Positions 16,242 to 61,977 of a stretch of DNA of 64,000 bases are shown here, in pieces. This DNA comes from Ostreococcus lucimarinus (lineage: Eukaryota): assembly GCA_000092065.1 (NCBI GenBank), contig CP000595.1. One strand, given 5' to 3'. The first letter of the stretch is position 1. The number at the start of each line of letters is the position of its first letter. Made by a program: the position numbers and the translations under genes. Below the pieces are notes generated by a model. That model did not search any database. It had not been told where the DNA came from and worked only from the letters and a program-made list of their open reading frames with translations.

Positions 16242-18338
16242 TCAAGCGGCGACGCACGTGCGACCGGTGAACCAATTCCTCTCCGTTTTGACCGCGCCGC
16301 TTATTTCGGACGCCACCGCGCCGCCTTCCGCCCAGCCGCCGGTTTTAGAGACTTGGAGCGCTTTGAAGCGTCCCATGTTCGCGCCTTCGACGCCGAAAGC
16401 CGCGGGGAGATTACCGGTGAAATCGGCGGCGCGAGTGGGCTCGCCGTGCGTTTTCAAGGAGTGACCGATCCATAACGATGTGTCGCCGGTTCGCCTGACG
16501 CGAAGGGTGAAGGTGACGTTGCGCCAAGCGTATCGTCCGTACGGCGATCCAGCGCTACCGAGCCACGAGTTGGCGTTCATCCACTGCCCGTTCGCGCTTC
16601 TGTAGCCAACTTGTGTTCTGAACCCCGCATTAGCGACGAGATCCGCCGCTTCGGGGCTACTGCTGTCTTCCACGACGATGGAAATATACACCGTTTTACC
16701 GTAGGCCGTGCAACAGCTACCGGCGCCATCCCCATTCACACGGTCGAAGGTGCAGTATCTGCCCGCCGAATATCTGTCGAGTTGACATCTATCGTCCATA
16801 GTGGCGCCTATCCAAGCCTCGTTCCAATCATTGGCGTCGTCCAATGCAGGGTGAAAGACATCCTCCGCGGCGGCGGTGCCGGTGACTCCATACCCGTGTC
16901 CAAAATAGATCATGGGGTAGCCATTTTCAAATACTGGTTGCGAGTACCTCGACAGCGCGTCCTCTGACGTGTCGAACTCATCAAAGTCACTCGGCTGCAC
17001 GTTCACCAGACGTTTCGAGCCCCCAGACCGAAATCCACTCGGGCACGCGGCGAGACACTCGCCATTGTGAAGGAATTTCCTGTTGGTACACTCAGTACAC
17101 TGACCGTTCAGACACTTGTTGCAGTTAGTTGGGCACTGCGTGCACCGTCGCGTCGTTGGAGTCGACCCACTACCGCCGTAACCCGGCGGACACGCGAGAG
17201 AACACGTGCCACCCAGATACCAAGAGCCTTCAGGGCACCAAAACTCGGGAATCGGGCACGAAGCAGCGCACCCACCGAAGACGTACGAAATGTCTTTCGC
17301 GTTGCGTTCGAGCGTCACGATTCTGTTCCAGAACGCGCCGAACTGTTGGGTATCGTGACATTTTCTTTCAAAAAGTGGAGCGCCGTTACCGCCGATTTCG
17401 TACAGCGCCTTTCCATTTTCACTCTTCACAACGAATCCAAACTCATAGTTGAGACCCCTCGTAGTGACTTCGAAGATGCCATCTGAAGTCGGGCAGACGA
17501 GTCCCAGCTTCGTAGAAACACATTTCAAGAAATTCACGGCGCCGTTGATCATCTCTTCACCTTCGTGAAGTTCAAAGAATCCGTGGTTCGGATCGTTATC
17601 GTGCATATTGTGGTGAACGACGTACGCGTGCGTCAGCGTCTCGTCGGGGCCAAAAATTTCGGGCCACTTGTTCCTGATTTTGGCGTCGATGCAGCTCGTG
17701 TGCAGCGTGAACCTCCGCTCCTCGCGTCTCTCGCGTCTGCTCGGCAATCTCGCGACCGAATAGTCCCACTTCCCGAGGCGACCGACCCCGGGCGAACGGT
17801 ACGCGCTCCGATTCACTGGATTCAACGCGGCGGTTTCCTCGCTCCGCGCGACGCGGCGCGGCGCGAGACGGTACGTCCCCAGAGACGTCGGCCCCGGCTC
17901 GACGACGTTTTCTCGCCCCAACGCCGCCGAGCTCGCGGACGCCGGATCTGCTTCCAACGCATCCGGGCAGTGATGTTGTATCGCCTCCACCACGCGCGTG
18001 TCCCCCGGCCCGCACGCCGGTTCCGTGAACACGCACTGCTGTTCCTCCGTCGTCTGAATCGCCGCGCAATCCATCGGCTCCGCCTCGAGCGCGCTCACGA
18101 GCGTCGGCGTGGCGTTCCGACACGCCTCCAGGCACGCCACGGGAACGTCCGTGAACGCCCCGAGCGCGGCGCGCCCCGTCGCGCCGTCGCCGCCGACCAG
18201 CGCGAGCGCCGCGACGCCGAACGCGACGCCAACACCCATCGCGAGCCACAGCTTCGACTTCGCGCCGCCGCGCGCGCGCGCGCCGTCGCCGTCGAGCAAC
18301 CGCGCGCGCTCGGCGTCGCGCATCGCGCCTCGATCCAT
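16242..18338 (-). CDS. Hypothetical type II (N-terminal signal-anchor) membrane protein with a furin-like / growth-factor-receptor-type Cys-rich repeat
   Basis: The ORF begins with a true ATG at 18338. It has a single N-terminal TM helix (LWLAMGVGVAFGVAALALVGG). The Cys-rich block reads CPEGSWYLGGTCSLACPPGYGG...CTQCPTNCNKCLNGQCTECTNRKFLHNGECLAACPSGF. The amino-acid composition is ordinary throughout. Confidence 0.6.
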   Translation of the reverse strand: MDRGAMRDAERARLLDGDGARARGGAKSKLWLAMGVGVAFGVAALALVGGDGATGRAALGAFTDVPVACLEACRNATPTLVSALEAEPMDCAAIQTTEEQQCVFTEPACGPGDTRVVEAIQHHCPDALEADPASASSAALGRENVVEPGPTSLGTYRLAPRRVARSEETAALNPVNRSAYRSPGVGRLGKWDYSVARLPSRRERREERRFTLHTSCIDAKIRNKWPEIFGPDETLTHAYVVHHNMHDNDPNHGFFELHEGEEMINGAVNFLKCVSTKLGLVCPTSDGIFEVTTRGLNYEFGFVVKSENGKALYEIGGNGAPLFERKCHDTQQFGAFWNRIVTLERNAKDISYVFGGCAASCPIPEFWCPEGSWYLGGTCSLACPPGYGGSGSTPTTRRCTQCPTNCNKCLNGQCTECTNRKFLHNGECLAACPSGFRSGGSKRLVNVQPSDFDEFDTSEDALSRYSQPVFENGYPMIYFGHGYGVTGTAAAEDVFHPALDDANDWNEAWIGATMDDRCQLDRYSAGRYCTFDRVNGDGAGSCCTAYGKTVYISIVVEDSSSPEAADLVANAGFRTQVGYRSANGQWMNANSWLGSAGSPYGRYAWRNVTFTLRVRRTGDTSLWIGHSLKTHGEPTRAADFTGNLPAAFGVEGANMGRFKALQVSKTGGWAEGGAVASEISGAVKTERNWFTGRTCVAA

Positions 18339-53700: not shown

Positions 53701-56700
53701 CGAACAAGGGTGACTTGACGTTCAACACCGCCACCGGACAGTTTGATTATGCCCCGTATCCAAACATGATCGGCGACGACAGATTCGTGTACTTTACGTG
53801 GGATGGATACACCGGTCCAAACGAACGCCCGTTGCAGTCGAAATACGCCACTGTAGAGATTCGCATCGGCAACGGCGAGACGAATCCCGTGGCGCAAGAT
53901 ATTAACGTCGATGTGTGGGAGAACTCTGCTGAGTATTTCACGTTCAGCGCCACCGATGCAGATTCCACCAACACGGAGATGACGAACGATATTCTTCGAT
54001 ATCAAATCTTTGAAGAACCGGAGCTGAATGTTGCGGGTATTCAGCTTGACACTCAGCAAATGAGTGGAGGGAAGCGATATTCCGAAAATGCAACGTTCCA
54101 GTACACGGCGTTCTCGAGTTCTGATCTCGTCAGGCGCGTGTCAGAGCGTATGGCGAACTACGGCACCAACTTCGATTTCAACACTCTTGCGCGAGAAAAT
54201 CATCCGGGATTCAACGTGACGTCCTTCAAATATGTCGCTATCGATTTATCTGGTCGCGTTTCCAACGTCGCAAACGCCTGGGTCTGGGTTCGACTCACCT
54301 CAGAGACGAATTCTCGACCGAGTGCCAACGCGATGACGTTCACCACGCCTGAATCTGTCGGCGTGGCGAGCAATTTCGACACGGCGGATTCCGAATCCCC
54401 GTTGCAACTGAGACACACGCTCCCATCGCTCGCGTTACAGCCGACGCTCGGCGTCGCTGCGCAAGTCGGTATCGCTGCCTCACCCTACGGCAAGGCGTTC
54501 ACATATGAACCGTTTCCATTCTATTACGGCGTTGATGTGTTCGAATACCTCGTCACCGATCCACACGGGTCTACTTCTGATCTCACCACTATCACCGTCA
54601 CGGTCTCGCAAGTCGATCAGCCGCCACAAGGCGCATGCGGAGTGAACTCTACTCTTAAGTCCTCAGCCGATCCGACGTACGATCTCAAAGGACGAACGGC
54701 GGAACTGAGCGTGCTCATGGGTTATCAAATTATCCGCGCCAAGACGATGCGATATTTGATCAATCCCGAGCGAAGAGACTTGGAGTTTTACAATTACTTG
54801 CCCTTTATCAATGATTTGTCCAAGTTTGACAGCGTCATCGATCATCAAAATATATTTTTGTCATGTGGGTCGACTTCAGCTTTGACAACGGCTGCTATTT
54901 ATCACGACCAAGTGACCGCGGTGGCGCTCTTGGCGTACGATGTCGACCAAGCTGTGAACGACACAATACGGTACGTACTAAGTGAACTGCCGACTATAGC
55001 GTCGTCAGATGCAGCACGAGGTACAGCTGGGTACGCTGGTACTCTTTATCGATACGTCGCCCCGAATGGCACATATTACAACTCCACCGGGACGACAGTG
55101 TACTCTTACACATCAGATTCCGTCACCGGACTCACGCCGCTCGCCGCTGGTGATACCATCGGTGACGCCGCGAATGGGGCTGTAATGCTGCTTTTCAAGC
55201 CTCGAGAATACATCCACGGACCAATCACGTTCAAATGGCATGCGGTAGATACAACGACGTCGGCGCGAGGCGACGACGTCGCGATGACAATCAGTGCCAT
55301 GTGCAGAGGAGGTGAAAGCGTCAACGCTGACCATGGAGAAACGTGCGATTTGTGCCCAGTTGGTTCATTCAACTCGGCGAACATAGCCGATCAACAAAGC
55401 TGCGTGCAGTGCCCGGCGGGGAGTTACACCTCCGCCACGGGCTCGACTATTTGCGTGCCATGTCCCGCGGATACGTACGCGAGCACCGCCGGATCGCAAG
55501 TCTGTACACCATGCCCAGCGAACACGCGTTCACCATCAGGAAGCGACGACGTTTCAGATTGCCTGTGCGATATCGGTTTTGTCGTTTCGAACAGCCCGCA
55601 GTGCCATCCTTGCGCGCTCGATCGCGTCAAATGTACCGAACTCGGTCAGTACACACCTCTTCCGTACGATGGATTTTGGCAAGATAGCACAAATGGAAAA
55701 CGAAACCTCACCTGTATCCCGGGCTTGGCTTGTCAAGAGAAGTTTGATAAGGACGAAGTACGCACTGGTGCATGTGCGCAACCTCGGTTCTACGCCAATA
55801 ATGTGACAAATTCTCCCGCGTACGTCGGAGATGGTTGCTCAAAGTGTGCGAAAGATCACTATCGTTACGCGTCCTTCTGCGAAGCGTGTGACCCAGTGCA
55901 AGAAGTAAGAATCTTCTTCGTGATACTGGCGTACTGCGTTGCGCTTTACGCCATGTTCGAACTCGCAACACACCCAGCTATTCCTTCTTTGACGATTTTG
56001 CTGTCATTCACGCAAATCACTGCTCAAATGCAGTACTTTGAAATTCCGTGGCCGAAAGCGCTCGCGCGTTGGATGCAAGTCGCGTCGCTCGCCGTGGCAG
56101 ACTTACAAATCCTTGGTTTAGATTGCGTTTCGACCTGGGACTACTTCACGCGATTCGCGACGACCATGTTCGCACCTTTTGTTTGGGTGTTCGTCCTCGG
56201 CATCGCCATCATTTTACGCTGCTGGAGAGAGATTGCGAATCAAGCTTATGCGAACGTGCAGCGACGGCGACTGATTGAGCGTCGAAGACTGCTCCACGAA
56301 TTTGACGTCGACGCCAAAAAATGGACTGATCTCGCCATCGCTCGCGATGGGTTACCGTTTGATCGCCCCGATTTGAAGGGCAAAGGAGACGACTACAACG
56401 CACTTGAGCTGCATCTGTACGGCAATACTAAAAACGAAGGGTTGCGAAAAAGAGTCTTCAAAGAGGGCGTCGAAGAGTTACGCAAGGCGGATTTGCGGGC
56501 GAAAAGCTCGCAAGAACAGTCCAAGACTGAGCGAAAGCTGAGGCAAACCAAGGATGAAATAGAAGAGCTCGAAAAGCAAAAGGCTGTGAGCGCCAGAATC
56601 ATCCGGGATAACGTCAACCGCGCCATTCCTTCGCTCGTCATCGTCATGTGGTGGGGTTACATGCTCTTGAGCCGCACCGCGATCGAGTACTTTGAATGCA

Positions 56701-58742
56701 AAGATAACACTGAGTCGGTGTTATTGGTGGCGGATCCACAGATAAGATGCAATTTTGATAAGCACTTGCAGTGGAAGCCTGTTGCGTTGATTGGTTTCAT
56801 TCTCTATCCGGTTGGTTTGTTCCTTGCCGCATTTGGCTGGCTTTACGTCCATCGATCAAGCTCAAAGACGCGACCGCGCGTGCACGTCTTGGCCACGAGA
56901 GCGTCTCAGATTGAGAAGGCTCGCGCCGATCAGGTTGAACAATTCAATGCACGTTACGGTATGATGTACAACTGCCTTCGTCCACAATTTTATCTATGGA
57001 TATGTGTTGACCTAGGCAAAAAGTTTTCCATCGTTGGCGTCAAGGTTTTGTTCCCGAACGACATTTTGTTGCAATCATTCGTCTCGATGGTTGTCTTCGT
57101 AACTTTCGGGATCATGAGCACGAGGAATCCTTACGTGAGTGTGAACTTGAACGTAGCGGAAATGCTTGCGACATTCATGAACTCAATCACGCTCATCGCA
57201 GGGTTCTACTTCCAGCTTGGTATCATGGATGACGTGTCTACGCAGATCGCCACGTACGTTATCATCAGTGGTTTGGCTGGCACGACGATTGTCTTGACCG
57301 TCATCGTCGTCGTCGAGTTTTTCCCATGGATGAAGCGCTTGTTTTTCTTGCTCAAGTACAACACGCAAACCGATATTTACAAACCAGATAAAATCGGCAC
57401 GCACGAAAGTGGACCGCAAGGAACTTCGTGCTACATTTTTGCTTCAGATTCAGCGTTCAGATACTGGTGCTGGCGCACAGTTCGTCATCCAGTTTTTGAC
57501 CGTCTCATCACAGCCACCGTGATGATGAGCGTCGGTTGTCTCATTTCGGAGTCTGTCTTATACGACGAAACTTTCACGTCATCTGCGTACGTGCGCATCG
57601 TGTGGTTCAATTCGTTCATGAACGGTATCTTTGTTTTGGAAGCTGCCGTGAAAATCATTGCCATGGGTTTCATCCTTGGCGATGGCGCGTACCTGCGCGA
57701 TACTTTCAACTGCATCGACTTTTTAGTCATCATGTTGCAGTTCATTCTCTTCGCAGTGAACATCACGACGAATGTCACCGGTGCGAGAAGTGCGAGATTT
57801 GTCAAATTCGCGCGCGTGGCGAAGGTCAGAGTCATTCGCGTCTTCCGAAGATTCCTGCAGTTTAACGCCGTCCGCGGCGAGAAATTCCGTCTGATGCTAC
57901 TTGAGGCGAAGGCGGAGGACACGCCCGCGCTCAGCGAGAGCATCGAGCGACTTCGCGTGGTTTTTGAACCACGCAGTGCCGAGACGATGGAATACAACTT
58001 GCGGGTGCTACAGCCCGATGTTTTGCGCGTCGCCCAAGGACTGATTGACGAGCTTTACCAAGAAAAGTTTGATCCTGAATTGGTCGCCGTGTACGAATCT
58101 CAAACCGACGCCGTGCATCAGATGGTGCAGAAGCAATATCACGACATCGTGTACGAATGGCTCGCTTTCGTGGCAGAACCTGGGCAAAAGCGCGCATTTT
58201 TGGCCACGCTGAAGAACATCCGAGACGTCGCCCTGGATCTCGGTCCTGAGGGCATCGCCAAAGAAATGCTTCGTCAAAAGTACGACATCGCCGCCATTCT
58301 CAACACGGCGTTGTACAAGGTTCCAGCCGATGTCAAGACGGACACGCGAGCGTATAAACGAAAGATTGCGAAAGACGCCAAGTCATTCACCAGCACAAAG
58401 GCAACCATCAGCAAACAATTCAACGCCTTCCAGGCTTCCATGCAAAGTGACGACCGCGTCGAAGATGCACTCAACCAGTTGCCGCTGCACTCGGTGGAGG
58501 AAGACAGCGCTCTCGCCAAACGGCGCGCCGAGAACGCGAGCGTGCGCATTCGTAACCGCTCGCTCAATGCGAGTGCAAAAGAGAAAATCATCCAAGATGA
58601 TCTTCAACAGAAAACCTCAGGCGCGGGCGAGCTCCTCGCAGCGGCGTCTAGCGTCGTCGCTGAAGACGACGTCGCTCCCGCCGCGCCGGCACCGGTGAAA
58701 TCGTCCGGATTGTTGGCGCGTTTCCGAAAGAAAAAGACGTGA
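35778..58742 (+). CDS. Giant mosaic membrane protein B (7,654 aa from the ATG at 35778; 7,684 aa from 35688). Order of parts: signal-anchor, PSI x2, EGF-like array, kringle, very long beta-sandwich/Ig-like ectodomain with SMB, ShKT-like and LNR-like inserts, cadherin-like 'VNDPP' modules, ephrin-receptor-like Cys repeats, about 10-TM module, S1-S4 voltage-sensor domain, helical cytosolic tail
   Basis: A single uninterrupted 23-kb ORF with ordinary amino-acid composition throughout. Domain evidence is given in the sub-features and findings. The hydrophobic N-terminus MIAIALFAALGGATPGRA follows both candidate ATGs. Confidence 0.9.
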   Translation: MATATAPTPTRSARTPSAWTRTAMIAIALFAALGGATPGRAAFTADVCYGASWEPTATATKASIGKTVKPVTAVPKEHPLFVDAFAKACLDVGNAAGNTSAATTVRLPKRTNAGNETYWSNAAGACATSPTVSAGQLFYNRAEMGSTLSYADSNTGLEKDKTVRIVFVNDDGKGAHVVVLAGARAATGSSSPEVGLMMEGGSLKNSANVVIEEPRGLTNVVTSGSGCDPSVSSASDCYELDTDLGLGKFRWGSGSDQRGIVIGHVADVNSEFAMKFTLLERIDSVEIGSFDDATFAMSWETIPTASALRGFKIRSATCTNHCALHATCASCATDDACGYCSATKTCTKIDGSCSSGFDVIGECLDTCGAALTCGECADQSGCGWCHTTGRCTAAQLDGSAPQDGNCSAFSVGSSAQCATCPGAVTSTMLPAYVDVDRVSAFCNGRGTCDNITRTCTCSSGYGGDGCEKMCPGGASNPCSRNGLCDSASGSCFCNPGYVGSRCNAATIVGTCECGSAHTYLKSDGTQQRVCSGRLDSSGSCVCLEGWSGVNCTVACAGTLTVGTEVCGGHGTCNVGTGQCDCEPCYSRDATSGLCVQDTCSTCDSSNGVCSCVSGSMQCACRGAFDGYACDQCKCGDHGRCNALSGECECDAGYAGELCERLIEPQPTCANGGTWNAALKRCECAGGYTGTLCDAACTTNPCNDLCSGHGTVNVDGTSCTCFTGFSGSTCNTCATGYGPYPKCGATLANGECTDNIVAYTGTTNVTISGKQCQSWSSQSPFAHTYASSSGSTSNECRNPSSDAHPWCYVDHTAITGSYTRGEPRWEFCSVPTCKSAYVNPQKICGVFGGETVVTFDKDSTSGALNAVSQQALTTTNDAVDKTNCGAMNLTNNDITLHANAAAHGDFVARFAEDSGTGYARRIITHIGLKASVSPAHDSVEVHADGTVKVNSVTKTNDLPYSDGSTGVLCVSDWMPVSSGLASTELLQITISETTVANITKFTACTGCAAQLIVVISVPNSVTSTGICATAGSATSVNFDENAEGSAPWGVGAALNAACGTDTHDPGSVSTVQAKWCDQCQYLGEVYDSCVAQMANEGFNFARAAVIEGCRMAFVAIYGYDRTIPSYLTATASTGATLADTVYPYRSYTPSDVQFKSLSDNRLAFDVLDVTETLPEYIVGTTRTDGSRTRMTGLPREFTGETDTTQVFPFPRIEDSCRTASDIGSTSGYRVYTMNYASATDEALEITMCGSATGTNVGVYTKDFVDIPSADWTHNTTSANGNITFTFTPWIDGLATYEARFEYSLASTKKNVTFDVTRTSANVNIGSFEFYPPTASDSYGSVGFEFSVPSAEAAATVSFTMSPTGTGDSTAANSAFISLTAVFIHAKNYAQASLNYPPFGGFKQVSCANFQAASCGSLKFTATQKTYYIVVSGQKFVSGAYSMQIKKLSADLTTVYTVSSNAATSLVRPLTGLDGAADGTLTPYKVAKYGDNIRVVVRASHAIDRPRITLGNYAVPSSKIVSAGAGAEYSATVTVSASMATSGHITVKVEQASTLTSASYGFKTSTHPLGSDIALVVLDNTAPTVSHAWVVNPSYMLAPSSAPSSCTNLTTSTGKDVNVTAAKYAKAGDYIAVIFTPSENVATIGGTIGGQAATKWVRATAPRDVTLAIDAYKITMSAAYVDAAYALVNDITLSDGVLPFSITFTDAVGNVGTTINSAINSLTGVTASSPLADRLSAARLLYDKSPPRPDSWSLRYASSSEMTGNQGSKPVYYHGFDNVASSAKEYRIGDTLVLTGTWTEYVSRPYGAYMRSSASSGVHVPQSAITITEQGGKLTGKLECMAKEFRPRAQEAVSTAQGFGGTSYVTSTYHKSWKVEANTIDPCDIVGKGALAWSARADCQAEHYAGNSLWIPLWSAWCRHGWGTLGYAVLGGVDPAGNSATALRQVSKSPNNADATVVIASSAVAGDAIIRTPIPIAGKIVPSWMNSVPRGDWTADPKVIEVYIEPQNVRWNEYRRVVKVGDMLQIQFYTDQPVKGVRALIGDDKALPPATHSEVASAMNVERPCSSDPDMQTWLGARGLLALAAEEYNDGSQFSNDDDWFDWLVQTSYNYRQPVPNVPNYPNAAVTCTGFWVQRGLRPNGKRYSVRRLCPNRYYLRRSSFAAQAPLTCSDPNDRIYKATDAYNYWVINFRYVTSHQVVNGDGALQIKWQLTTMDDRVLPTGGGWQTSAAFFTSADTSADVNHLKPTSTDAVGAAFDPAISCGRNADTAFNQAGSAVWAVQDTLAPSCASFVTDGSCASTTVARVANSSGTTFPTVTNPATNVAEHVAVVGDYITLIITFDEHIAAGVYVTLNDGVLTARATKVDKYSATFTFEVTQTLAALNTFLEYKVYNLKDIQEANTATATFTTNVFNAEKIRLQSASELTAFSLTNGACSTTSNNVNNQYAKNGNTVNVSVTLPLPPSSANTVLTIHESKLAGVYVTPPTPTCVGTPNACTITMARTVDSLSADFVDGSVVSWSLVVIGTTKCAHHASSLCITRFKLTSCRPTFASEVVLDFTPPSLTSVRLSEPVTSASLVNGTGQVKVDVVSSEQLYTLTYTLDTRGPLCTYDFGMVSAQSMTLTTDGTLTGTHTKTITATYNSASLHCVLEVICITFVGEDMAGHKLTNPTTCRSFSPTDSEDYPGWFMLHNVGTGPSSVSLARPLGLHCMDSSVDTQACANSASVTSTTLEYGNYLALDVSSGYPIGITDISVDGHSVYAATGFGSSTFQNDNAWTIDCSDLVRDDLCVRFATSATCQAYLCPTCQYAGMCDFSCGYCDSRRAFSKTHKLTLKTTDFGLPATDFTNEVVTVSYRTNPAIAPAATMNSTDTLTYTAPTTSSCAGRCGGTAPSGCECNPTCKSRGTCCADAGHCCTVGLPSTGALNVDGGCLRPNAVTLSVTKESWGVDTKGVRKSNVNRYSTIYIKLTGNKPIDVRRVLIGGVLVPDSDVAIEYNSQTSARQSLNEALVAYGNGNDAQFTSKSAAFAGSLATLPSAAYSWDGNEFSIAFPDIPSTLVATIRVNGANLVPQPDGALTYEVVYRERSGAPYFTDNTELTLTGTGPTWLNPPSISSVSYVLLNSSSTCDLSTPGTPVTAAGNGLTKIEIGHQLRTVVTFSSPVVVRKWTVEGAETNCYGTCHLHGLCKLDPHILPPDEHDEAEYITTWTSCRTFDAKEMTTLENLECGVREFIRAVDRSGNLVMGERWNNLYCFTLPPAIPSQGLIKVRGLTSCYRSTTTKKFGPGCIATIHIEADGEIMEPTVKWWNTATNAYANFPSACVMTATDPTSPSSLVWTLTCAGTAAATFPPSNSYTLQLEVSDVRATDESTFTGTARDTDDGYLGSDKDPIIVDNLAPTPTATVPLSCALVIGSQSTITVTYAVEPSWRPTVSAFGAQVGGVIAQTGALSGFHTVWIAPITVPSDWLGGSPMPFVITNGEDEYGNIDTTSHGNYLSNDNVLTGDVNCSVNVDAPRVTSATCASPSPRVVKPGGSVTVDFSTNVAVTIPSGCVKISGVTVTPTDLGGSKKSWRATATIPSDPPACDGEVALSICAEITDTGNNTGVEVVTQFFGPESEACLIDGTAPVLQLIDFTSDNTYDSKLATVGDTVRLYFEASEMITAPTITLFATATPSATAVETSGPSRRRFPSTVLNAGGTQYATIWTAEYVVDGTTPVGALTWDATGFMDRATNDGTKSACADWNPPSCSIVHAAQTTAQRALEPSINFVGDVVQTFNNFLTTSPSGNVSTLFSCYANSSSTSLSALNLAILKTDLSRHDIVAGGIFQHHLMTAQDLWWQRGGACGTANGLMCRSTCGRCNDAAVVVHRTTTTLTVANVTAGGTAIPGDQCPGGVGTCMCNPTLGDQSEARYIVSTSARDLVSKPTIRFNDTSGTVYTVPEANIVAVSPVMWPTLPTVDCLSESTVRDGVCDPSATLNNRDGCWDGGDCCQDTCRQVFSDGAYCQAQDCRDHSISPVTGRPTSGFWSSYNAKALVARELSVEWKVTFPVDDTLPLIDGVLTGTACCMQDKSGLDVLHANKGTFVAGAPCLDAVLTRDTSCLLRAALTADNGEFVVKENQPVSLTLEFEGNPRGMNCTIGGESVTMTQTRAASSGVTALWSTTRTSVNAVDTAIATRIAASEEQKRRHELLPEVFELNLWANCSRGVTIPFECSISDCGGNLFEITDAVDPTSDVCFDYVRPDATSIGQTSSNTCSNAYAKVGDTLILNVTMDADVSNPTAYTLAGEACTLRTFGTNAFTCDVVVSSTTIEGPANFTFDGIKSSVPAYLDAVNTSYTELKTLSPDGVVTLGGDRVIIDRTAPTFDSLAMYSLEVANKTCQKRCTVRVAIDAAEELSSCTATIGGITANITGTGSERVAEAYIDENSGIAAGEITFSVICLDLACNSVTTSTLVGDTDAVIYSLDRDIPLEVLFYSDRPGHLEIGNENDCLMMEMRFLLAVELKAIVMGNITNNALSLWNITTTGGALVVPGTTHTYYLITHCITDAWGTEDWPVVPWSFTYDDGLQDVVWNTTFTSDVNFPRVVRLDLEDPVATYVYAFTTGANDPSAGLGDALYLDIIASEAVVAPTVTFGGVTLNATDVSQVGTSSEWRAGPYIVKNSTDDPNILKDINDCFLFSVTLKDLVDHTSILYSQQVNATGSLNCVTQRVDIDQDAPTIVWLQTEYVTATTVDFTFAVDELSNVSYVVLPRGAVEPTPLEVQAGTGAAGTGAVASGVKEYLGSSTPSPGAGAGGKGQDVLNITGLLAGTNYDVWFVPFDRFGNSQTEAQSRWIRTVGLDMLINSLATQEGGYTDVIQVKLTQVPTADVSVTISERSGIGNVVLVDQALSLTDYVSSVTLVFTPITWNVAQEVGVKAVDDIYVEDQHTEELKFDVRSLDVRYDALVDPNRTVVIADNDECGVIVYDPNNRPLERTLSCSANAVIALLNYSVAEDTTVYADIYLQAAVRGDDVRVTLTSSDLTQISSPASVTLTFNETNYNLAQRVPIIPVYSCVAALDRYVPIAVSVESATTCGDLVVPEIPVYVTDLQKVGLAFTKAQITGPPGSNYEFDMYLTSQPTSDVQVSLATLPDAFGADLYGSASFNCGAQGPVWTFSADECSVPVTCIVTLVGDDTKCGDVTLQVGAKVTSLDSMYNGISSSPPNMTILETANAAGWYIRNADNTEFIVTPPDAPNGTLPLEPWKVNEQIETGIYTITPTTALCKTVTLRPYIPDTDYARYATISPRQVTLEAGFFGPTKFKVIFPRNYNVPVTNDIVQIWHDVVYGTDDPDYLALSPNLGGSALPVEIVEYDVAGLLLGNGAENTVLIDEPCSTDVTTQVSSLGFTLSSAPSATVVVSLSEMNYNATQLAILKANKHLVLGTTSLSFTPNNWNIPQPVMVSAISYDNLTEARTAYVCGDMTSDDDVYQALNQTCYPVHICDCSGSCGLISFDDHANCTFAADQLNNTEITFPPSMKQLSSCWNISATCGGIQVASLSAAGHDPVMTNFTTLPDSEAYSVSLDKVQRLFYTTQWSVIDKLELPLSLIDGGMQGLTDASGTYCLGISSSSFVVNNTANGGLFVEKAAPMSAFANSFEILPAAANTFDSDVYILEVRVLAGASPLTDSYSLNCTDGGNFSAPGGCIIGPSLRGYFNNATQVMTFTNTAYLPEADLANAAGRKLLGKYPYPSQRRRLLQAPAAPAPASTSQFVWAVNNITFSDISLDPTGATRMMNTRVVDQFGAIVEGPILNIDTEGVNDPPIIDIDLPLIYTEKESLTLNAPLQAYDVDNYNWTQCVVNITDIANNFMAGDTFSYNKTAIVEYYQYWNTSLPAGFVDIDATFTDSQRTVTFAGLAPPAAYLRAMRNLVLLNAGPAMTADDRYIMFCCQDPEALNNKGCGLQRVVFQPVNDPPLAENKIVYLADPRVGGLTGETVPGSDPDGDTFTFNISCLPNKGDLTFNTATGQFDYAPYPNMIGDDRFVYFTWDGYTGPNERPLQSKYATVEIRIGNGETNPVAQDINVDVWENSAEYFTFSATDADSTNTEMTNDILRYQIFEEPELNVAGIQLDTQQMSGGKRYSENATFQYTAFSSSDLVRRVSERMANYGTNFDFNTLARENHPGFNVTSFKYVAIDLSGRVSNVANAWVWVRLTSETNSRPSANAMTFTTPESVGVASNFDTADSESPLQLRHTLPSLALQPTLGVAAQVGIAASPYGKAFTYEPFPFYYGVDVFEYLVTDPHGSTSDLTTITVTVSQVDQPPQGACGVNSTLKSSADPTYDLKGRTAELSVLMGYQIIRAKTMRYLINPERRDLEFYNYLPFINDLSKFDSVIDHQNIFLSCGSTSALTTAAIYHDQVTAVALLAYDVDQAVNDTIRYVLSELPTIASSDAARGTAGYAGTLYRYVAPNGTYYNSTGTTVYSYTSDSVTGLTPLAAGDTIGDAANGAVMLLFKPREYIHGPITFKWHAVDTTTSARGDDVAMTISAMCRGGESVNADHGETCDLCPVGSFNSANIADQQSCVQCPAGSYTSATGSTICVPCPADTYASTAGSQVCTPCPANTRSPSGSDDVSDCLCDIGFVVSNSPQCHPCALDRVKCTELGQYTPLPYDGFWQDSTNGKRNLTCIPGLACQEKFDKDEVRTGACAQPRFYANNVTNSPAYVGDGCSKCAKDHYRYASFCEACDPVQEVRIFFVILAYCVALYAMFELATHPAIPSLTILLSFTQITAQMQYFEIPWPKALARWMQVASLAVADLQILGLDCVSTWDYFTRFATTMFAPFVWVFVLGIAIILRCWREIANQAYANVQRRRLIERRRLLHEFDVDAKKWTDLAIARDGLPFDRPDLKGKGDDYNALELHLYGNTKNEGLRKRVFKEGVEELRKADLRAKSSQEQSKTERKLRQTKDEIEELEKQKAVSARIIRDNVNRAIPSLVIVMWWGYMLLSRTAIEYFECKDNTESVLLVADPQIRCNFDKHLQWKPVALIGFILYPVGLFLAAFGWLYVHRSSSKTRPRVHVLATRASQIEKARADQVEQFNARYGMMYNCLRPQFYLWICVDLGKKFSIVGVKVLFPNDILLQSFVSMVVFVTFGIMSTRNPYVSVNLNVAEMLATFMNSITLIAGFYFQLGIMDDVSTQIATYVIISGLAGTTIVLTVIVVVEFFPWMKRLFFLLKYNTQTDIYKPDKIGTHESGPQGTSCYIFASDSAFRYWCWRTVRHPVFDRLITATVMMSVGCLISESVLYDETFTSSAYVRIVWFNSFMNGIFVLEAAVKIIAMGFILGDGAYLRDTFNCIDFLVIMLQFILFAVNITTNVTGARSARFVKFARVAKVRVIRVFRRFLQFNAVRGEKFRLMLLEAKAEDTPALSESIERLRVVFEPRSAETMEYNLRVLQPDVLRVAQGLIDELYQEKFDPELVAVYESQTDAVHQMVQKQYHDIVYEWLAFVAEPGQKRAFLATLKNIRDVALDLGPEGIAKEMLRQKYDIAAILNTALYKVPADVKTDTRAYKRKIAKDAKSFTSTKATISKQFNAFQASMQSDDRVEDALNQLPLHSVEEDSALAKRRAENASVRIRNRSLNASAKEKIIQDDLQQKTSGAGELLAAASSVVAEDDVAPAAPAPVKSSGLLARFRKKKT
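38037..38273 (+). other. Kringle domain
   Basis: The sequence is CTDNIVAYTGTTNVTISGKQCQSWSSQSPFAHTYASSSGSTSNECRNPSSDAHPWCYVDHTAITGSYTRGEPRWEFCSVPTC. It has six Cys in kringle spacing plus the hallmark strings Y-x-G, CQxW, NxCRNP, PWCY and WExCxxPxC. Confidence 0.8.
44406..44507 (+). other. Somatomedin-B (SMB) domain
   Basis: The sequence is SCAGRCGGTAPSGCECNPTCKSRGTCCADAGHCC. Its eight Cys have the spacing C-x3-C-x7-C-x-C-x3-C-x5-CC-x5-C, which is the SMB pattern. Confidence 0.75.
47625..47729 (+). other. LNR-like (Notch/LIN-12 repeat-like) module
   Basis: The sequence is CLSESTVRDGVCDPSATLNNRDGCWDGGDCCQDTC. It contains DGxCD and the CxWDGGDC signature typical of LNR modules. The Cys count is not fully canonical. 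Confidence 0.5.
57456..57860 (+). other. Voltage-sensor domain (S1-S4 of the voltage-gated cation channel superfamily) with no pore domain after it
   Basis: S1 is FRYWCWRTVRHPVFDRLITATVMMSVGCLISESV. S2 is VWFNSFMNGIFVLEAAVKIIAMGF. S3 is YLRDTFNCIDFLVIMLQFILF. S4 is RSARFVKFARVAKVRVIRVFRRF, with R/K at every third residue. The downstream 290 codons are hydrophilic. Confidence 0.75.
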
Positions 58743-58902
58743 TCGTCATCAAACAAAGTTCAATTATTAATTTACCCCACTAGCGGCGCTTGGGATCACG
58801 ACATTAGCGCCTTGATCCTTGTTATAACGCACCACAGTTATACCGCGCCGACGCGCCGCACACGCCGCCTCGCTCGACGCACCCGATGGCGTGAATCCCG
58901 GA

Positions 58903-61900
58903 ATGTCGCCCCCCACGCTCGACGCCGCGCTTCGTCGCAACGCACGCGAGCGCCCGAGCGCCATCGCGTGCGTCCTCGTCCCGAACGCGCGCGAGAAGAA
59001 CCGAAAGTGCTTCTTCACTTGGGACGAGTTACACGGCGTCGTCGACGCCCTCGCGCGCGTCTTGCGCGCCGACCGCCATCCGCGCGTTCTGAGCTTTTGT
59101 CGCGACGGCGTCGAGGCGTTCGTGGCGCTGCACGCGTGCGCGCGGGCGCGGAAGAGTTTGGTGAACGTGGACGCGGCGACGCCGGCGAGCAGGATTCGGG
59201 ACGTCGCGCGGGACGCGAACGCGACGACGTGTCTGTGCGCGAACGACGGCGATGAAGACTCGGTAAAATCGGTGTTAGGAGAAGACGGTGTCGCGGTGCG
59301 CGTGTGGGAGGTGATTAATGCGGGCGCGGAGGCGATCGAGGCGGAAGAGGACGAGACGCGAGAGGACGACGAAATTTGGATTGCGTACACGAGCGGGACG
59401 ACGGGAAAATGCAAGGGCGCCGCGGCGACGCATCGACGCGCGATGGCGTACGCACGGGCGAAGTGTGAGGTGGAAGAGATCGACGCGTGCTCGCGGGTGT
59501 GCTTGGCGTCGAACGCGACGTTCGATTTGTGGCACGGCGACGCGTGCGCGGCGGCGGCGGCGGGCGCCGCCGTCGTCGTCGCGTCTCGCGCGACTTTTCA
59601 ACACGATTTCGCGAGAGTGTTGCGAGAGGGCGAAGTCACGCACGTGTGTTGCACGCCGACGATGTTCTCGCTGGCGCGACTTCCGCGTGGGATCGTGGAC
59701 GCACCGAAGTTGCGATGCGTATCGCTGGCGGGGGAGCGCATGCGCGAGAGCACAATCGCACTATGGGCCGACGACGTGGCGTTGTACAACGTGTACGGTG
59801 CCACGGAAACGACTGTGGTGCAAACGTACGCAAGAATGCGCAATGCAGAAGACGAAAGCACGAATCGGGCGGGGAAAGCGTACGAAGGATTTGCCAGCGT
59901 GTTCGTCGTGGATGAAATGCGCGAAGGCGAATTGGCGGTGCAATCCTTCGCGCAGAGACGCGGCGTCGAAGGCGAAGTTGCCATCGGCGGTATTTGCGTC
60001 GCAGACGGGTATTTGAACGACCCCGAACGCACGGCACGTGCGTTCGTTCACTCACCATTCGGTACCGTCTATCTCACGGGCGATCGCGGGTACATCGATG
60101 ACGCAGGCGATTTGTATTTGCGCGGTAGACTCGATCGCCAAGTCAAGATTCGCGGTCATCGCGTCGAGTTGGATGAAATCGAAGCCGCGCTTCGTTCGTG
60201 CCCCGCACTATGCGACGACGCCGTCGTGTTCTACGATGCCAATGAGGGAGTGCTGACTTCCCACGCACGAGCAGCTTCGCCGACGTTCGACGCGTCGAGC
60301 GATGCAGATTTATACGCGTTCGCGCTCGAACGCGTCGTCGAGCTACGATTGCCGCGACACATGGTGCCTCGTCGACACGTCTTCATCGAGCACGCGCGAT
60401 GGCCTTTGACTTCGAGTGGAAAAACGAATCGTCAGATACTGCTTCAATGGTTTGCGAGCGGCGAGACGAAGGCGTTTCGACCTAAGCGTGAGAAACCGCA
60501 AGCGGGATTGGAAACAGTCGTCGCGAACGCTTGGGCTGTCGCGCTGGGGCACGGCGACGCGAGCGATATCGGCGCCCTCGACGCGTTCGATGCGCTCGGT
60601 GGAACCTCACTCAACGTTCTCGCAGTTTCAAAAGCGCTGGCGAGCGACGACGGAATCGTGCGCTCGCGCGATACCGCGCGTGGCGAAATTGTGCGCGAAG
60701 CGCGAATTGGTTTACGCGACGGCGAAGCTGCGGCGCTGCTCAACGACGGCGAAGAACCCGCGGCGTGCGCGTTCGACGTCATCGACGGCCCGTTCGCACC
60801 GTGCGAAATATTCGCGAGACCCGTGCTTCGCGATTACGTTGATTATTTGCGAGCGCAAGGTATAGACGCCGACGTGAACGCTCCCGCGTCCACCGCCGTC
60901 GAGCCACAGCGAGATACATCTGCGAATCGTCGCATGCTCGCGGCGTGCGGTCGCGGCGTCGCCCCCGTCGTTCGCGCTTTGCTCGCGACCGGCGTCGAAG
61001 CATCGGGCGAGCACCTTCGAGCCGCCGCCGCGAGCCTCGCCGACGAAGCCGTGGACGTAGTGCAAACTTTACTCGCCGCCGGTGCGGATGCAAGTTCATC
61101 ATCCGCCACAGCCGGTACGCTCGCGACGCACGTCGCCGCCGCTCGCGGGAACTCTGAAATGTTAGAAATGTTGCTCGCCGCCGGCGCTCCAGCGGGAGCG
61201 AAGGACGCGGATAAGCAAACGATTTGTCACTTAGCAGTGCGGAGCGGGGATGTGAGTACCGTGCGCGTCGCGGCAAACGCGTGTAAACACTTGAAGACAC
61301 GCAAAGGTGGCTTGGAGTCGTGGGATCGTTGGAAGCGCACGCCCGCAGCGTGGGCGCTCGTCGCGGGATCGAGTGAAATTTTAGCCGAGTTGCGAGATGC
61401 CGGGGCGAATTTAACATCGCTTGAAACTGACGTCTCCAACGCCTGGGTGCACGGTTCGCTGAGCGCAAAGAGCGAGGTGCAGTTGGCGCATCGCCCGGTT
61501 CGCAAGCGAGGTGCCGCGGCGGAGGTGTTGAGCGCGCTCGCGGCTAGATTGGACGCCGCAAACGTCGAGAGCGAACGTATTGAAGCGGCGACGGCGATTC
61601 GCGAGCTCGTGTGCGCAAACGCAGAGAATCGAGAAAAGGCGCGAACGATCGGTTTGGTGCCAAAACTGTGCGAACTCGCGCGCGATCGTCACTGCGTTGA
61701 AGCCATCGGCGCGTTGAGAAATTTAGCCACCAACACGAGCGCGGCAGGGGCGGCTGGCGACGCCGGAGCTATGGAAATCCTCGGTGATGTCATTCGCGCT
61801 CGTGCTAAATTAAAAGACAGCGAGCTGAGTGCTGACGATAGGCGAGTAGTGTACGCTGCGGCGAGCGCGATGCGCGCGTTGGCGGTGAAGCACGACGCGA

Positions 61901-61977
61901 ATGCCGCGCGATTGCGCGCGTCGAGAGACGTCGCGGACGTCGTCAGTCGATTGTGCGAAGGCATGCGATTAGAGTAG
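58903..61977 (+). CDS. NRPS-like adenylation (A) and thiolation (T/PCP) didomain enzyme fused to ankyrin and armadillo-like repeats
   Basis: The track start at 58891 is GTG, and the first ATG is at 58903. The A-domain core motifs are IAYTSGTTGKCKG (A3), NVYGATETTV (A5), YLTGDRGY (A7), GRLDRQVKIRGHRVELDEIE (A8) and LTSSGKTNRQ (A10). The T-domain motif is FDALGGTSLNVLAVSKAL. The ankyrin repeats include TLATHVAAARGNSEMLEMLLAAGAPAGAKD. The C-terminus reads as ARM/HEAT-like helical repeats. I recognised no C, TE or R domain. Confidence 0.85.
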   Translation: MSPPTLDAALRRNARERPSAIACVLVPNAREKNRKCFFTWDELHGVVDALARVLRADRHPRVLSFCRDGVEAFVALHACARARKSLVNVDAATPASRIRDVARDANATTCLCANDGDEDSVKSVLGEDGVAVRVWEVINAGAEAIEAEEDETREDDEIWIAYTSGTTGKCKGAAATHRRAMAYARAKCEVEEIDACSRVCLASNATFDLWHGDACAAAAAGAAVVVASRATFQHDFARVLREGEVTHVCCTPTMFSLARLPRGIVDAPKLRCVSLAGERMRESTIALWADDVALYNVYGATETTVVQTYARMRNAEDESTNRAGKAYEGFASVFVVDEMREGELAVQSFAQRRGVEGEVAIGGICVADGYLNDPERTARAFVHSPFGTVYLTGDRGYIDDAGDLYLRGRLDRQVKIRGHRVELDEIEAALRSCPALCDDAVVFYDANEGVLTSHARAASPTFDASSDADLYAFALERVVELRLPRHMVPRRHVFIEHARWPLTSSGKTNRQILLQWFASGETKAFRPKREKPQAGLETVVANAWAVALGHGDASDIGALDAFDALGGTSLNVLAVSKALASDDGIVRSRDTARGEIVREARIGLRDGEAAALLNDGEEPAACAFDVIDGPFAPCEIFARPVLRDYVDYLRAQGIDADVNAPASTAVEPQRDTSANRRMLAACGRGVAPVVRALLATGVEASGEHLRAAAASLADEAVDVVQTLLAAGADASSSSATAGTLATHVAAARGNSEMLEMLLAAGAPAGAKDADKQTICHLAVRSGDVSTVRVAANACKHLKTRKGGLESWDRWKRTPAAWALVAGSSEILAELRDAGANLTSLETDVSNAWVHGSLSAKSEVQLAHRPVRKRGAAAEVLSALAARLDAANVESERIEAATAIRELVCANAENREKARTIGLVPKLCELARDRHCVEAIGALRNLATNTSAAGAAGDAGAMEILGDVIRARAKLKDSELSADDRRVVYAAASAMRALAVKHDANAARLRASRDVADVVSRLCEGMRLE

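Follow-up and report, generated by a model that had tools for sequence, protein, structure and literature searches.

Two giant Ostreococcus proteins with a CRMP-like nine-helix membrane core, fused in one of them to a pore-less voltage sensor

The eukaryotic picoalga Ostreococcus lucimarinus carries, in a 64,000-nucleotide stretch of contig CP000595.1 (assembly GCA_000092065.1; hereafter the window, to which all positions refer), two giant uninterrupted open reading frames (ORFs) that diverge from each other head to head. Their products are called here protein A and protein B. Protein A starts with an ectodomain of EGF-like, Big_9/Cadherin-like and Ephrin_rec_like repeats, continues into a module of nine transmembrane (TM) helices and ends in a long cytoplasmic tail. 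The ectodomain of protein B is giant, being composed of teneurin-like EGF domains, Big_9/Cadherin-like domains and Ephrin_rec_like Cys repeats, and is followed by a nine-TM module, a voltage-sensor domain and a cytoplasmic tail. The nine-helix module is very probably a divergent form of the core of CRMP-type receptors, distantly related to the "TRP-like" domain of the fungal Flc/Pkd2 proteins and oriented with its N-terminus outside and its C-terminus inside the cell. The features discussed below, with residue numbers in amino acids (aa), are:

25891-35631, minus strand: protein A, a single ORF of 3246 aa.
31312-31365, minus strand: last Cys repeat of A, directly before TM1.
30142-31311, minus strand: nine-TM module of A, aa 1441-1830.
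35632-35687, no strand: shared upstream region of the divergent A and B ORFs, 56 bp separating the first ATGs.
35688-58742, plus strand: protein B, a single ORF of 7684 aa.
55836-55889, plus strand: last Cys repeat of B, CSKCAKDHYRYASFCEAC, directly before TM1.
55890-57359, plus strand: nine-TM module of B, aa 6735-7224.
56214-56615, plus strand: cytoplasmic helical-hairpin ("coiled-coil") insert between TM3 and TM4 of B, charged and of variable length across the family.
57486-57854, plus strand: voltage-sensor domain S1-S4 of B, aa 7267-7389, with no S5-P-S6 pore.
57855-58739, plus strand: cytoplasmic tail of B after S4, about 295 aa, helical and soluble, with no Pfam family.

Translation places the two giant ORFs, and the junctions at which a Cys repeat runs into TM1, where an earlier note on this DNA had put them. 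That note described the module as lying directly after ephrin-receptor-like Cys repeats. The Cys repeats do abut TM1 in both proteins, but the junction motif itself is not called Ephrin_rec_like by Pfam. The Ephrin_rec_like matches (E = 2e-9 for A, 5.5e-9 for B) lie further upstream, the nearest of them being separated from the junction motif by about 105 residues in A and about 130 in B. In B, the last Cys repeat has no Pfam match. The last repeat of A has a weak, sub-threshold match (E = 0.037) to DUF7630, which in TgCRMPA is the last domain before TM1 (E = 9e-18); B has no DUF7630 match. The loop motif GL(D/E)Cxxx(W/Y)D(Y/F)xxR, which had been noticed in both modules, is present in both, as GLDCVSTWDYFTR in B and as a 13-residue counterpart in A. 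The hydrophobic helices, first counted as about ten, number nine according to both hydropathy and an AlphaFold2 model. The coiled-coil loop of about 130 residues that had been described with them is real and connects helices 3 and 4, but it belongs to B only and is absent from A.

The A and B modules are about 19% identical. BLASTP aligns them with E = 2e-4 if the Cys repeat is included, and finds a collinear second segment with E = 1e-3. In Smith-Waterman alignment the comparison has a z value of 4.4, the observed score being reached by 1-3 of 500 shuffles, and in an alignment that rewards collinearity z rises to 6.4, with the observed score reached by none of 300 shuffles. The shuffles used in these pairwise comparisons preserve the hydrophobic blocks. 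A profile built solely from family members outside Ostreococcus was also run against the 334 six-frame ORFs of the window. It has exactly two matches, namely A and B, each across nearly the entire profile: aa 6741-7214 of B (positions 55908-57329, E = 2e-73) and aa 1461-1812 of A (positions 31251-30196 on the minus strand, E = 8e-35). These limits are close to those of the earlier note. When the modules are excised and scored with the HMMER filters off, B reaches 249 bits and A 121 bits. By comparison, 300 shuffles of each module within 20-residue blocks (299 of the 300 gave a score) reach at most 30.5 bits for B and 8.3 bits for A, and the reversed sequences score below zero. Profile-to-profile comparison by hhalign relates the B-type module to the family with E = 1.2e-47 over 367 columns and the A-type module with E = 1.6e-32 over 335 columns. 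The family members had been picked with a profile that contained A and B, at E-values calculated for 1.8 billion sequences; the later profile scores are far beyond any selection effect. Judged by these comparisons, the two modules are homologous and collinear, and resemble each other better than shuffled TM sequences do, as had been proposed.

The model of B was built by AlphaFold2 with a 49-sequence alignment and has an overall predicted local distance difference test score (pLDDT) of 74.5 and a predicted template-modelling score of 0.66; the single-sequence prediction for B has a pLDDT of only 41. Within the core (model residues 1-490) the block-mean pLDDT is mostly about 85-95, with lower values for the insert and for the loop that joins TM5 to TM6. 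The helices span residues 2-25 (TM1), 31-49 (TM2), 290-320 (TM5), 370-387 (TM6), 392-410 (TM7), 418-443 (TM8) and 448-477 (TM9), while TM3 begins at residue 85 and TM4 extends up to residue 266. Short extracellular helices between TM2 and TM3 (residues 56-80) bear the GLDC loop. On the cytoplasmic side, helices 3 and 4 are extended into a long helical hairpin (residues 85-152 and 183-266). The loop between helices 4 and 5 folds into a beta hairpin (270-279) with two Cys residues. A cytoplasmic helix (340-361) bears the RYGMMY motif, and an amphipathic helix (479-489) follows helix 9. The N-terminus of the module is placed outside because the N-terminal segments of A and B resemble signal peptides and the ectodomain is Cys-rich. 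The K/R-rich loops of the module are situated on the cytoplasmic side, and the predicted topology agrees with that reported for Pkd2. The family profile matched no chain among the PDB sequences. The comparison with channel and transporter folds that had been proposed for such a model was made by Foldseek against the PDB, and no match was better than E = 0.6.

The voltage-sensor domain of B, which the earlier note had overlooked, starts 42 residues after helix 9. Since the number of core helices is odd, S1 enters the membrane from the cytoplasmic side, which is the canonical orientation. The domain is matched by the Pfam family Ion_trans (PF00520) with E = 4e-13 and 49.6 bits (gathering score 25); of the 241 profile positions, the match covers 1-112. 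Among solved structures the domain is closest to the sensors of repeats I and III in Cav2.3 and Cav2.2 (E = 3.5e-29). The sensor retains the S2 F-x-x-E motif, the conserved S2-S3 linker and the S3 Asp (ALGFILGDGAYLRDTFNCIDF), and its S4 is intact, with five R/K residues at three-residue spacing within RSARFVKFARVAK. An S5-P-loop-S6 pore is lacking in B: the Ion_trans match ends at position 112 of 241, and no later hydrophobic segment occurs. Protein A has no voltage sensor. An Hv1-like proton channel was considered for the sensor of B and rejected, there being no Asp in the middle of S1 and no RxWRxxR in S4.

The sensor is kept in B orthologues that are 64-69% identical (among P0001-P0011). 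It is also found in a far more distant homologue, P0022, a protein of 6608 aa from a contig with 66% G+C, which is collinear with aa 5735-7484 of B at 27% identity (E = 2e-153). The order of elements in P0022 is that of B, namely Cys repeat, nine helices, VPWAKR and S1-S4, and the first ~90 residues of the B tail align with it as well. Because the orthologue fragments and P0022 carry it, the fusion of core and sensor is no accident of this genome. Literature searches found no report of a voltage sensor in proteins of the CRMP or PF06011 type, and the fusion of the nine-helix core to a Cav-like pore-less sensor is an arrangement for which no report was found. One B-type orthologue call, P0005 (ENA contig 12703; L001 10001-12208), turns into arginine- and proline-rich nonsense soon after helix 9. 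This points to a frameshift or an assembly error in the polished metagenome-assembled genome, and the sensor is therefore missing from that call. Two independent fragments of B orthologues, P0007 and P0008, do carry the sensor.

Word-indexed homologue searches returned nothing beyond near-identical or 64-76%-identical fragments. Close relatives also dominated when such a search was made with the family alignment; its sole new fact was a PF06011 match on P0151, described below. An exhaustive HMMER search, in which a profile combining the A-type and B-type modules was run against 1.84 billion representative proteins, retrieved 140 proteins at E ≤ 1e-3. Of the 137 newly retrieved ones, 18 have 2000 aa or more and five have 4000 aa or more, and the module is situated towards their C-terminus. 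The 200 residues preceding the module contain at least 6% Cys in 38 of the 45 retrieved proteins that have enough sequence, and Ephrin_rec_like repeats were found upstream of the module in six of nine relatives scanned. The proposal that this is a conserved membrane core placed straight after Cys-rich repeats is thus borne out in the relatives. Their named sources include green algae (Nephroselmis, Caulerpa, Myrmecia, Cymbomonas) as well as Paulinella, Anaeramoeba, Mantamonas and Gefionella. Their existing names, such as "ephrin type A/B receptor-like domain-containing protein", refer only to the Cys repeats. An alignment of 33 modules has shared columns throughout: a Gln followed by WP in helix 2; the loop Cys; F-x-C ... 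P-x-x-x-C in the loop between helices 4 and 5; Y-P-x-G in helix 5; (R)FGFLYxxY...W(E)...RKL on the cytoplasmic side; a Gln at helix 7; and P-Y after helix 7. The invariant in-membrane Gln residues correspond to Q6776 and Q7129 of B. As far as sequence relationships go, this is a pan-eukaryotic family of giant Cys-repeat proteins with a nine-helix core, widespread in protists.

The core had been thought to be of unknown function and specific to this receptor class. It is instead the core found in the alveolate CRMPs, proteins that are required for contact-triggered exocytosis (PMC9670195) and whose conserved part consists of two EGF-like domains and nine TM helices, with a TM heterodimer being predicted (PMC9815656). 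The TM-core sequences of TgCRMPA and TgCRMPB, taken from the S2 Table of PMC9815656, are matched by the family profile with 122 bits (E = 1.7e-39) and 55 bits (E = 4.7e-19), respectively, and hhalign relates the family to the TgCRMP cores with 99.1% probability. A phmmer search with TgCRMPA matched 58 of the retrieved proteins, the best at 1.2e-18. Compared directly, A and B match the TgCRMPs weakly, with domain E-values of 3e-5 to 1e-4 in a two-sequence search. A correspondence of the A type to CRMPA and of the B type to CRMPB was sought, and no differential similarity was found.

The link to fungi runs through the same relatives. PF06011 ("TRP") is the fungal TRP-like family that includes Pkd2, Trp1322 and Trp663 of S. 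pombe, Flc of yeast and TrpR of A. nidulans, and its members influence Ca2+ homeostasis (PMC8618638). Reconstituted fission-yeast Pkd2 passes Ca2+ on membrane stretch (PMC9727806). Pfam finds no family over the A and B modules even at E ≤ 10, PF06011 included (gathering score 28.5 bits). Yet PF06011 is matched by 12 of 20 aligned family members at E ≤ 0.01, and three of nine full-length relatives pass its gathering score: P0041 with 47, P0042 with 44 and P0036 with 29.7 bits. These three had been found by the A and B profile at E = 4e-7, 6e-7 and 1e-7, respectively, among 1.8 billion proteins. P0151, a fragment of a B orthologue with 67% identity, has a PF06011 score of 24 bits (E = 2e-5). The earlier note had held that a clean mapping to a named Pfam family would remove the novelty of the module. 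That novelty is weakened by the matches of the relatives, but the mapping is indirect, A and B themselves being unmatched. The module does not constitute a new family: it belongs, as a divergent member, to one that is known but poorly understood. The CRMP TM cores are likewise unmatched by PF06011 yet strongly homologous to protist proteins that match it; literature searches found no paper linking CRMPs with PF06011 or with the fungal Flc/Pkd2 TRP-like family.

The head-to-head pairing of the A and B genes is kept in a related genome in which the proteins are 70-76% identical. On ENA contig 12703 (497 kb) an A-type module is situated on the minus strand near 347 kb and a B-type module on the plus strand at 373-375 kb, and the retinoblastoma gene adjoins the A-type gene. 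The true starts of A and B are likely to be just ahead of the signal peptides, in which case the shared upstream region is a few hundred base pairs long. The conserved pairing, together with the heterodimer predicted for CRMPA and CRMPB, suggests that A and B are co-expressed and that their proteins pair. The neighbouring ORFs in the window encode Vps41, acetolactate synthase, retinoblastoma protein, SNAPc3, OGG1 and alpha-glucan water dikinase. At 90% identity, the acetolactate synthase and the protein next to it cluster with proteins of O. lucimarinus CCE9901 and O. mediterraneus. The ORF directly downstream of B (58891-61977, plus strand) encodes an AMP-binding (adenylate-forming) enzyme domain together with ankyrin repeats, an uncommon combination. 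A separate ORF of 698 aa (16242-18338, minus strand) has a Furin-like_2 Cys-rich repeat and lacks the nine-helix module, the family profile matching only A and B in the window. The G+C content of the giant genes (25891-58742) is 0.563 and 0.556, compared with 0.62 and 0.61 in the flanks, and is lowest in the TM modules and the voltage sensor, at about 0.49-0.50.

Protein A has further peculiarities. Its cytoplasmic tail contains a 99-bp tandem repeat (26584-27327, minus strand) present in 7.5 copies that are 99% identical. The repeat encodes 33-residue, zinc-ribbon-like units with the pattern CxxC...CxxC; more diverged copies then follow, and a CCHC knuckle is situated upstream. The near-identity of the copies suggests a recent expansion or homogenisation. 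At aa 441-606 (33814-34311, minus strand) two strongly hydrophobic segments flank a ubiquitin-like-looking stretch that ends in HVHLKLRG, and a proline-rich run follows; Pfam finds nothing in this region. Such a hydrophobic pair is odd inside a presumed ectodomain, and could reflect an unrecognised intron, a problem of the gene model or a real extra membrane hairpin.

With a probability of roughly 0.55, the nine-helix core is a contact- or force-sensing receptor core, probably ion-conducting, possibly working as an A/B heterodimer and, in B, modulated by voltage. The giant ectodomain would bind a surface, or bear and transmit force, and the core would convert contact or force into a membrane signal, of which a flux of cations (Ca2+) is the likeliest form, as for reconstituted Pkd2. 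By analogy with what is predicted for CRMPA and CRMPB, A and B possibly pair through their cores. In B the membrane potential would modulate the core or the tail behind S4, so that B would be a receptor whose gating depends on contact and voltage together. The part of this proposal that calls for ion conduction with voltage modulation falls somewhat short of an even chance.

Several results weigh against the proposal and the family assignment on which it builds. The direct hhalign comparison of the A-type with the B-type profile is weak (P = 0.005), so that the assignment rests on intermediate sequences. Neither A and B nor the TM cores of TgCRMPA and TgCRMPB have a direct match to PF06011. 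As no solved structure has the fold of the core, no pore can be pointed to. The sensor part of the model has a low pLDDT of about 50, too low to establish a contact between sensor and core. The absence of a sensor from A means that voltage control is not intrinsic to the core. The case for channel activity in the family comes from one study, in which a distant fungal member was reconstituted, and the CRMP authors favour a signalling role like that of a G-protein-coupled receptor (GPCR).

The alternative that survives best, though it appears unlikely on present evidence, is that the core does not conduct. It would then be a signalling or assembly platform that dimerises, traffics the ectodomain and relays contact through the long tails, in the manner of an adhesion receptor or a GPCR. 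This accords with the CRMP papers, in which these proteins are proposed to sense host contact, with features like those of GPCRs, and to act as escorters (PMC9670195; PMC9815656). The tails are indeed long, that of A comprising about 1400 aa with the Cys4 repeats and the CCHC knuckle and that of B about 295 aa after S4, and no pore-like feature was identified. However, the helices number nine and not seven, and no GPCR family is matched in Pfam. To our knowledge, chlorophyte algae are without canonical heterotrimeric G proteins, which also counts against a GPCR-like platform. The fusion to a pore-less sensor is easier to explain if the core joins in electrical signalling, and fungal Pkd2 does pass Ca2+ in vitro (PMC9727806).

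It is improbable that the sensor of B acts in the manner of VSP, with the motion of S4 controlling the adjoining tail and the nine-helix core serving as a neighbouring anchor only. The tail of B has no recognisable enzyme or other domain, the sensor resembles those of Cav and Nav rather than that of VSP, and the fusion to the nine-helix core is kept in the homologue of 27% identity. A VSP-like enzyme was rejected outright for B, there being no enzyme domain or phosphatase after S4. A solute carrier, for example for flavin as first proposed for yeast Flc, is a very remote prospect, although PF06011 members in some fungi are assigned to the FLC family and said to transport FAD (PMC8618638). Finally, the idea that A and B resemble each other as any hydrophobic helices might, with no common origin, could appeal to their low identity, to a BLASTP value obtained with the Cys repeat included and to the poor direct profile match, but is refuted almost beyond doubt by the full-length scores of the independent profile against its shuffled and reversed controls and by the invariant Q, C, Y-P-x-G, Q and P columns common to both.

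The roles of channel, carrier and GPCR-like receptor have all been proposed previously for such proteins. The natural fusion of the core to a pore-less sensor, which distant homologues have kept, speaks for a role of the core in electrical or ionic signalling, and makes the function of the family directly testable, with the C-terminal ~950 residues of B as a compact construct. Tentatively, B and its homologues might be regarded as a new class, that of adhesion receptors with electrical coupling, in which a pore-detached Cav-type sensor would gate or tune a CRMP/Flc-Pkd2 core, possibly in an A/B heterodimer. If this were true, the CRMP core would itself be ion-conducting, and the contact-triggered signalling of CRMPs in parasites and ciliates would be ionic and not GPCR-like. 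The core is now known from at least six protist lineages besides this free-living green alga. With this spread, the receptor of Cys repeats and nine helices is an old eukaryotic invention and not a speciality of parasites.

Among known systems, the CRMPs of Apicomplexa and ciliates (TgCRMPA/B, PfCRMP1-4, TtCRMP1/2) are organised in the same way as A and B, with a large modular ectodomain followed by Cys repeats, nine TM helices and a tail. In both cases there are two paralogues per genome; the CRMP pair is predicted to associate, and A and B form a conserved head-to-head gene pair. In contrast to the CRMPs, A and B belong to a free-living green alga that has no rhoptries or mucocysts, and their ectodomains are Big_9/Cadherin-like and have no Kringle domain. 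B is moreover far larger and has a voltage sensor, which is not reported in the CRMP literature found.

The fungal PF06011 proteins, including Flc1-3 of S. cerevisiae, share with the A/B family a homologous multi-helix core (profile positions ~130-420 of 426) and, with A and B, an N-terminus outside and a C-terminus inside; some members also have a cytoplasmic helical region. Their ectodomain is a small lipid-binding ML-like domain (TRP_N), whereas that of A and B is giant and built of Cys repeats, and Pfam finds no TRP_N or ML match in either protein. They are not described with a voltage sensor in PMC9727806 and PMC8618638, whereas B has one. Polycystin-1 is analogous in architecture to A and B, with a giant ectodomain and a multi-helix membrane region; the name "Pkd2" of the fungal relative is historical. 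The canonical six-TM TRP and polycystin channels, which have a pore between S5 and S6, were considered as a model for the core and rejected. They match it neither in sequence nor in fold, the best Foldseek match to a TRP channel having E = 0.66 and a TM-score of 0.12.

The sensor of B is most readily compared with the pore-less sensors of Hv1, Ci-VSP/TPTE and TMEM266, with which it shares an S1-S4 with intact charge-transfer residues and the lack of an S5-S6 pore. It differs from them in being situated C-terminal to nine other TM helices inside an adhesion-type protein of 7684 aa. If coupled to the core as proposed, it would add to voltage-sensor biology a new type of effector, beside the proton pore, the phosphatase and the canonical pore.

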